Shown piece after piece: positions 15,001-16,154 of a stretch of 16,154 nucleotides of DNA. The position numbers were made by a program. How positions within the stretch are numbered: the first letter of the stretch is position 1; each line of letters begins with the position of its first letter. Source of the stretch: a virus (taxonomy: Duplodnaviria; Heunggongvirae; Uroviricota; Caudoviricetes); the IMG/VR virus record IMGVR_UViG_2531839027_000011. One strand, written 5' to 3'.

Positions 15001-16154
15001 CAACGCTTGGGGGCACCTATTGGGGCACTCACCAAAATCGAAAGAGAAATAAACTACAATTCAAATTGTTAGCTAATTTTTCGATTCCTGCAGGGACACC
15101 AGATACCCTTCAAACCAAATCTACCTTCATCCCGTAAACGATGGGTTTGGCAGCACACTTGCCCTATATCTACTCATTTTTACTGCAACAGGTTGAAATC
15201 TCAGCACTGTCAGAAAGCGCTGATGACTAAACAGCCCAGGGCCGGGCGATGTAACCATCACACAGAATCCTGATAGCGAAATACGGCGTGACTCGATACT
15301 TCACTCCGCAATGCATTCCTTGATGAATTCGCAGGCCCGTGATACACGGGACAGGTCGCAGAATGACGACAATGTCCTGGAAATCAGCGAACCGTGTATC
15401 CGGAGTACATTTGAGCGACTGTACCAGAACATGAATGAGGTGTTTGGATTAGGCGATTATTAGCAGGGCTAAGCATTTTAGTATTATTATTTTCCGGTTG
15501 AAGGATATGGAGATATCGACAACAACCGGAAAAAGTTTACGTCTATATTGCTGAAGGTACAGGCGTTTCCATAACTATTTGCTCGCGTTTTTTACTCAGG
15601 AAGAAAATGCCAAATAGCAACATCAGGCAGACAATACCCGAAATTGCGAAGAAAACTGTCTGGTAGCCTGCGTGGTCAAAGAGTATCCCAGTCGGCGTTG
15701 AAAGCAGCACAATCCCAAGCGAACTGGCAATTTGAAAACCAATCAGAAAGATCGTCGACGACAGGCGCTTATCAAAGTTTGCCACGCTGTATTTGAAGAC
15801 GGATATGACACAAAGTGGAACCTCAATGGCATGTAACAGCTTCACTAATGAAATAATCCAGGGGTTAACGAACAGCGCGCAGGAAAGGATACGCAACGCC
15901 ATAATCACAACACCGATAAGTAATGCATTTTTTGGCCCTACCCGATTCACAAAGAACGGAATAATCGCCATGCACAGCGCTTCGAGTACCACCTGGAATG
16001 AGTTGAGATAACCATACAGGCGCGTTCCTACATCGTGTGATTCGAATAAACCTGCATAAAAGACAGGAAAAAGTTTGAACCGCCCCGGGAATCCTGGAGA
16101 CTAAACTCCCTGAGAAAGAGGTAAACAGGATGACTAAAAATACACGTTTTTCCC

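Follow-up and report, generated by a model that had tools for sequence, protein, structure and literature searches.

We put at roughly 93% the probability that a full-length IS629-type insertion splits the sucrose permease gene cscB in an Escherichia coli O157:H7-type chromosome, and that it leaves the strain deficient in sucrose uptake. The insertion lies at the right-hand end of the window, by which we mean the whole 16,154-nt stretch of DNA that was analysed. In the proposed course of events, a full-length, 1310-bp element of the IS629 type (IS3 family, minor isoform) would have transposed into cscB on an O157:H7-type chromosome, entering after nucleotide 718 of the coding sequence, duplicating the trinucleotide GTT, and coming to rest with its transposase genes antisense to cscB. 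The rest of the element and the 5′ part of the permease gene would then lie beyond the window end. The features on which this reading draws are listed here by window coordinates.

15543–16075, minus strand: 3′ fragment of cscB (sucrose:H+ symporter, LacY family), from translation, identity, Pfam and NCBIfam
15543–15992, minus strand: longest residual ORF of the cscB fragment, 149 aa with a GTG start, from the ORF list; an in-frame stop within the IS precedes it
16073–16075, no strand assigned: GTT, the left-hand of the two copies of the 3-bp target-site duplication; sense-strand AAC of cscB, CDS nt 716–718
16076–16154, plus strand: IS3-family element (IS629/IS1203 group, minor isoform), represented by the 79 nt at the left end of its 1310
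16076–16100, plus strand: left terminal inverted repeat (IRL), TGAACCGCCCCGGGAATCCTGGAGA
16130–16154, plus strand: start of transposase orfA (MTKNTRFS..., the first 8 codons and 1 nt), with its ATG at 16130

The cscB fragment and the csc locus

First, the interrupted reading frame is that of a LacY-family permease, as the preliminary description had proposed in tracing an uninterrupted frame up to 16075; all of its coordinates hold. On the minus strand the frame runs without interruption from 16075/16076 to a stop codon at 15543–15545, a length of 177 codons, and its product matches Pfam LacY_symp (PF01306) over profile positions 243–412 of 413 (E = 8e-78, 262.5 bits against a cutoff of 24) as well as the NCBIfam model TIGR00882 for oligosaccharide MFS transporters (235.9 bits, above the cutoff of 220). 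The 533 nt of the fragment are identical at 533/533 positions (100%) to the 3′ end of the intact O157:H7 cscB, where they correspond to nt 716–1248 of the 1248-nt gene, that is, the last two nucleotides of codon 239, codons 240–415 and the stop codon. The identity extends far beyond the gene: window positions 1–16075 match O157:H7 strain Rafaela_II in one piece at 100%, with the match ending at 16075, and many other O157:H7 genomes match the same interval at 99.9%, all of these matches likewise ending at 16075.

In the matching O157:H7 genomes the gene is intact (1248 nt, 415 aa) and annotated as “oligosaccharide MFS transporter”. The gene order of the intact locus runs from a serine recombinase and a DUF4942 fragment through cscB (−), cscK (−), cscA (+) and cscR (−) to a truncated dsdX and dsdA, the annotation names being aminoimidazole riboside kinase for cscK, sucrose-6-phosphate hydrolase for cscA and LacI-family regulator for cscR. 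The operon reads cscK and then cscB, with nothing co-directional downstream of cscB. In the window, a DUF4942-like ORF occupies 15311–15463, immediately past the cscB stop codon. The tRNA gene argW (tRNA-Arg(CCT)) lies at window positions 6476–6550, and the genes cscR, cscA, cscK and cscB are located between argW and dsdA, the location by which orthology to cscB is recognized; the csc sucrose regulon sits at precisely this argW–dsdA recombination hot spot (PMC4366372, PMC11251922).

Because of the 100% identity to O157:H7 cscB and the csc gene neighbourhood beside argW/dsdA, the interrupted gene is, judged by its sequence and location, cscB itself and not merely “CscB-like”, so that the earlier proposal of a CscB-like permease, probably for sucrose, can be made more definite. 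It could still be argued that a LacY-family permease for another sugar, of the lactose or raffinose type, has been hit and that sucrose uptake is unaffected, given that NCBI annotation offers only “oligosaccharide MFS transporter” or “galactoside permease” and that NF007077, a model for galactoside permeases, gives the fragment 234 bits. That score, however, falls below the model's 429-bit cutoff, the same gene is named “cscB: sucrose MFS transporter” in some RefSeq records at 98.9–99.5% identity, and the permease gene adjoins cscK, cscA and cscR at argW/dsdA as it does in the csc regulon (PMC4366372, PMC11251922). A permease for another sugar therefore has next to no chance of being the right identification, and we rejected it on the strength of the identity and the neighbourhood.

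What the window encodes of the complete 12-helix, 415-residue CscB is residues 240–415 only, and the fragment is without promoter, ribosome-binding site, start codon and the N-terminal 238 residues. On its sequence, this piece is to be regarded as a gene fragment (pseudogene) rather than as a functional family member. The cscB frame continues for nine codons into the IS before closing at a stop at 16101–16103, after which the first possible start in the frame is the GTG at 15992 that opens the 149-aa residual ORF. A promoter scan of 15300–16154 returned no minus-strand site able to drive the 3′ fragment; the residual ORF is probably unexpressed and would comprise at best about four C-terminal transmembrane helices. 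A look-up of the 149-aa sequence returned other disrupted cscB alleles, and neither this search nor one with the 142-aa C-terminal ORF discussed below recovered the contig of the window. Disruption can also be gauged across complete E. coli genomes, 2,649 of 5,426 of which carry cscB; in 16 of these 2,649 no place covers at least 80% of the gene, which is thus split or truncated there.

The inserted element

Second, the DNA that begins at 16076 is the end of an insertion sequence. From this position the window reads TGAACCGCCCCGGG..., which coincides exactly with the terminus of an IS3-family element of 1310 bp; the element runs off the window end, so that about 6% of it lies within the window. 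The terminal inverted repeats are of the form 5′-TG...CA-3′, with the IRL beginning TGAACCGCCCCGGG... and the right-end repeat (IRR) finishing ...CCGGGGCGGTTCA, both in the partner scaffold described below (L019) and in full-length copies. The IRL matches the right-end repeat of that scaffold at 22/25 positions (counted by eye), and an IRL/IRR pairing over 25 nt is also present in the IS1203 copy. The ATG of orfA, for which the preliminary description had given position 16130, is indeed found there; it is the 55th base of the element, the same offset as that of the annotated transposase start in a pig isolate of E. coli (L003), and the orfAB transposase genes are antisense to cscB.

The 79 nt inside the window are identical (79/79) to 1310-bp elements in the pig isolate and in O157:H7 strain TR01 (L004), and a 100% match to them occurs in 818 E. 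coli records. These two full-length elements, whose ends agree with the window, are bounded by imperfect terminal inverted repeats of about 25 nt and contain an orfA of 108 aa, an orfB and an annotated programmed frameshift; their target duplications measure 3 bp. In such an identical-end element, outside the window, orfA matches HTH_Tnp_1 and NF033516, while orfB scores 312 bits on NF033516 (transpos_IS3, cutoff 160) and contains the Pfam domains HTH_21, rve and rve_3 of a DDE transposase. The assignment to the IS3 family made in the preliminary description is thereby upheld; the possibility that the element is not an IS at all, which that description had named as fatal to its reading, was looked at, and the element proves to be an isoform of the IS629/IS1203 group.

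IS629 is the dominant and most active IS of E. coli O157:H7. Its terminus (isoforms IS1203 and IS3411), TGAACCGCCCCGG..., is identical to that of the window element, and the likeness further comprises the 1310-bp copies with the same ends, the orfA/orfB arrangement with its programmed frameshift, the DDE (rve) transposase and the 3-bp duplication. Nucleotide identity to named IS629 isoforms is high: over its full length the minor isoform is 95.3–95.5% identical to IS1203, and it is 95.3% identical to a 795-nt partial copy labelled IS629 by RefSeq, the RefSeq label for the minor isoform itself being only “IS3 family transposase”. IS629 comprises three sub-types that are 4–5% apart, a divergence that the 95.3–95.5% figure fits, and generates target duplications of 3–4 bp (Rump et al. 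2011, PMC3271280). Of these, sub-type I resembles IS1203, and sub-type III resembles that of O26:H11 and occurs in O157:H7 as well (PMC3271280); the inserted element most likely belongs to sub-type III. The common IS629 of O157:H7 is of the IS1203 type, whereas the 79 nt in the window are those of the minor isoform and agree with the common IS1203-type copy at 77/79 positions. As the inserted element, the common IS1203 isoform was rejected on two mismatches at each end, and also on the absence of an IS1203-based fusion protein from the public collection.

Thirty complete O157:H7 genomes, including EC4115, TW14359, SS17, SS52 and JEONG-1266, have a resident copy of the minor isoform adjoining an inovirus-Gp2-like gene, and the genomes with this resident copy overlap those that best match the window. 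We infer that the resident copy of EC4115/TW14359-like strains is a plausible donor.

The two junctions and the missing half of cscB

Third, the two sides of the proposed insertion can be read from two separate sequence records. The left junction falls on the exact IS terminus (...AAAAAGTT/TGAACC, with the slash marking the boundary). None of 5,426 complete E. coli genomes contains this exact junction; the sole full-coverage match among them, the pig isolate, has its IS 79 bp further along cscB. A degenerate pattern covering both junctions yielded one match each in the GTDB species representatives and in the JGI metagenomes, both of them chance matches unrelated to cscB. One chance pattern match, in a Tabrizicola sp. 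MAG (NZ_OZ260076.1; L006 5733–7068), is a stretch of about 1336 bp bounded by the inverted 13-nt terminus TGAACCGCCCCGG, presumably a distant IS3-family relative in an alphaproteobacterium.

As the exact left junction was absent from the genomes searched, the protein product of the 5′ half was predicted instead, for target duplications of 2, 3 and 4 bp in combination with either isoform, and looked up by exact sequence. Only one of the predicted products occurs in the public collection, namely the 261-aa protein expected of a 3-bp duplication and the minor isoform, which consists of CscB residues 1–239, then Leu, then NRPGFPGECFICELRLPDHRF, and which has been deposited from E. coli EC1869 and EC1870 (EKJ34718.1 and EKJ40834.1). 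Duplications of 2 or 4 bp were rejected, the corresponding predicted proteins being absent from the collection.

The scaffold that carries the fusion (JH947076.1, 243,944 bp, assembly GCA_000303335.2; L019) breaks off within the right end of the IS, of which it includes 77 nt, identical at 77/77 positions to the minor isoform and with 2 mismatches to IS1203. From the proposed insertion, the partner junction would be predicted to read ...CCGGGGCGGTTCA followed by GTTGTTGATCAAAAATG, that is, IRR, GTT and then cscB; the scaffold reads, on the window strand, ...CCGGGGCGGTTCA/GTT/GTTGATCAAAAATG..., a boundary that can be written on that strand as ...GGTTCA/GTTGTTGATC. Beyond the IS and the GTT follow cscB nt 1–718, cscK, cscA, cscR, dsdX′ and dsdA, and the non-IS part of this sequence (1716–6719) is 100% identical to Rafaela_II. 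GTT thus flanks both IS ends, one in the window and one in the scaffold, and occurs once in intact cscB, a target-site duplication of 3 bp read across junctions from two separate records. What the preliminary description had advised seeking beyond the window, namely the second IS end, the target duplication and the missing 5′ portion of the permease gene, is all present in this separate record. The contention of that description that an IS terminal repeat cuts the frame is sustained by a break exactly on the IS terminus and by the reciprocal junction in a public assembly.

Taken together, the two junctions would reconstruct one simple insertion of 1310 bp with a GTT duplication. Since position, orientation, isoform and duplication match, the derivation of the window and the scaffold from one insertion event is by far the simplest reading, as we infer from the two records. 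The exact window-type junction was found only in the EC1869/EC1870 draft assemblies, where it is represented by its right-hand side.

With only one junction inside the window, it is conceivable that 16076 instead marks the end-point of an IS629-mediated deletion or inversion, by which the 5′ half of cscB was lost or moved, possibly together with cscK, cscA and cscR, leaving the far end of the IS abutting unrelated DNA. IS629-mediated inversions have been reported in STEC (PMC10132054), and the element occupies 19–21 chromosomal sites per O157:H7 strain (PMC3271280), so that recombination between its numerous copies is possible. A rearrangement of this kind is nevertheless improbable, as the scaffold from EC1869/EC1870 carries the complementary junction, with the same isoform, the same nucleotide, the opposite IS end, a perfect GTT duplication and a csc locus that is otherwise intact, and a perfect target duplication is the mark of simple transposition, not of deletion or recombination.

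Both ends of the window lie in multi-copy DNA: the left end (positions 1–200) in an ead/Ea22-like prophage gene found at up to 3–5 places per genome, and the right end (16076–16154) in IS629. As, in addition, the window stops 79 nt and the scaffold 77 nt into the IS, the window would seem to be a whole short-read contig broken at repeats. Multi-copy ends of this sort also lend some colour to the suspicion that the junction is an assembly artefact, i.e., that a short-read contig was wrongly extended into a repeated IS while cscB is really intact. We hold this to be very improbable, because the changeover coincides with the opening base of the IS terminal repeat rather than with a shared k-mer, no sequence is common to cscB and the IS at the junction (GTTGATC in intact cscB against TGAACCG in the window), and the reciprocal junction with its duplication comes from an independent scaffold, whereas misassembly would yield no target-site duplication.

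Sucrose uptake, other disrupted alleles and the surroundings of the locus

Finally, simple transposition into cscB would have definite consequences for the permease. Cut at codon 239, CscB would be represented by a 5′ product of residues 1–239 with a 22-residue IS-encoded tail, and transcription from the csc promoter would be expected to give rise to this fusion. The product would comprise roughly the first seven helices; by analogy with LacY, we take the truncated protein to end about where helix VII ends. A half-permease would not be expected to carry sucrose, and owing to the truncation at codon 239, CscB is predicted to be non-functional. With CscB non-functional, sucrose uptake would be too low for fermentation or growth, and a loss of sucrose uptake is thus to be expected, with the strain probably unable to ferment or grow on sucrose. 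The genes cscK, cscA and cscR should be unaffected, since nothing in the operon lies downstream of cscB.

The prediction accords with what is reported of the Csc system. Growth on sucrose is reported to require cscB, no other transporter being sufficient (PMC3938415), sucrose transport by CscB has been described for the alleles of E. coli W and EC3132 (PMC3938415, PMC11251922), and a cscB frameshift leads to sucrose non-fermentation in STEC CC119, as shown by reversion (PMC10132054). According to a statement in PMC3938415, which cites Moritz and Welch 2006 for it, O157:H7 is only a slow sucrose fermenter, so that the phenotypic step would lead from weak to none. Should the strain also possess an unlinked scr or raf system, the deficiency could be masked. 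For one O157:H7 sublineage, that of EC1869/EC1870-like strains, the allele predicts a phenotype that is negative for sucrose or weaker still, and the strain-specific IS629 site could be used as a marker for typing, much as the presence or absence of IS629 at its sites was analysed in PMC3271280. As one more case of csc locus decay in pathogenic E. coli, the allele touches no open mechanistic question, and its significance is small.

Related alleles place this insertion in a familiar class of events. In Shigella, cscB and cscK as a rule carry IS1, IS3 or IS4 insertions (PMC11251922), and the cscB pseudogenes of Shigella and STEC resemble the present case in that the CscB permease is lost and the rest of the csc locus kept; the insertion site in the other cscB::IS cases differs from that in the window, which is at CDS nt 716–718. 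A further parallel is scrY::IS3 in E. coli F/ST62, where an IS3-family insertion likewise knocks out a component of sucrose uptake, and where revertants appear on sucrose plates, as expected upon IS excision (PMC11251922). There, however, the target is the porin of the Scr PTS, the IS measures about 1.9 kb and the insertion may be polar, whereas in the window the target is the Csc symporter, whose gene is the last in its operon. Only one paper found in a literature search for cscB together with IS629 names the two, and it describes no such insertion; the cscB::IS allele of the window may be undescribed in print, although it is already in GenBank. This IS629 knockout of cscB is unremarkable, since disruptions of the gene by IS elements and by frameshifts are already on record.

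IS629/IS1203 insertions in cscB were also found in O111:H8 strain 7-54 11A (duplication ACC), in a Logan assembly (L009) and, at an identical site with different isoforms, in the pig isolate and an O157-context draft genome (L008), an AAC duplication being read in the former and the insertion in the latter lying at the same position. The elements of this last pair (L003 4140–5449 and L008 8529–9838) differ by 4.5%, sit at the same cscB nucleotide in the same orientation and come from unrelated strains (a pig commensal and the O157-context draft), which suggests either a preference for this target or gene conversion among copies of the IS. Five IS629-type insertions at four cscB sites were encountered, in all of which the 3′ cscB fragment adjoins the left end of the IS, and the sampling of insertions was biased to this orientation and region, so that, apart from the L003/L008 pair, the pattern may be a search artefact. 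That cscB CDS nt 637–797 form a preferred, orientation-biased target for IS629-type elements is a doubtful proposition; an alternative reading of the pattern is repeated selection for loss of sucrose uptake in cattle-associated STEC. Separately, a 142-aa C-terminal CscB ORF occurs in 424 blocks of the collection and, in most of the loci shown (L020–L029), is paired with a 253-aa N-terminal ORF. E. coli thus abounds in frameshifted cscB pseudogenes, in keeping with a T-tract deletion that has been reported in STEC CC119.

The surroundings of the csc locus add several minor observations. The window is covered to at least 80% by only 69 complete genomes. A perfect 16-nt direct repeat, TTCGATTCCTGCAGGG, occurs at 6528–6543 and 15080–15095, with the copies 8552 bp apart, the first inside the 3′ part of argW (6476–6550) and the second about 450 bp short of the end of cscB. 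The two copies bracket an IntS integrase (6676–7869), P22-like ejection and tail-needle genes and a serine recombinase (14319–14945), and owing to the argW position and the bracketed IntS and phage genes they look like the att sites of a prophage remnant, the “island” of the preliminary description. Tyrosine integrases flank argW on both sides, at 5111–6355 (−) and 6676–7869 (+), and the one on the left is part of a lambdoid prophage situated between yfdC and argW, with bet/exo/gam and ead/Ea22 genes present in L002; in three other sequences (L005, L008 and L009) yfdC adjoins argW or IntS with no lambdoid prophage between. Within the prophage remnant, a 470-aa ORF at 12241–13653 (−), a hypothetical protein with no Pfam match on record, is intact in the window and in Rafaela_II and frameshifted in strain PV15-279. 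A 9-bp unit (CAGTTCAAC/CAGTTCAGC) is repeated in tandem about seven times at 4652–4723, inside a DUF1627 prophage gene (ORF 4471–4866), and this in-frame repeat could vary in length between strains.
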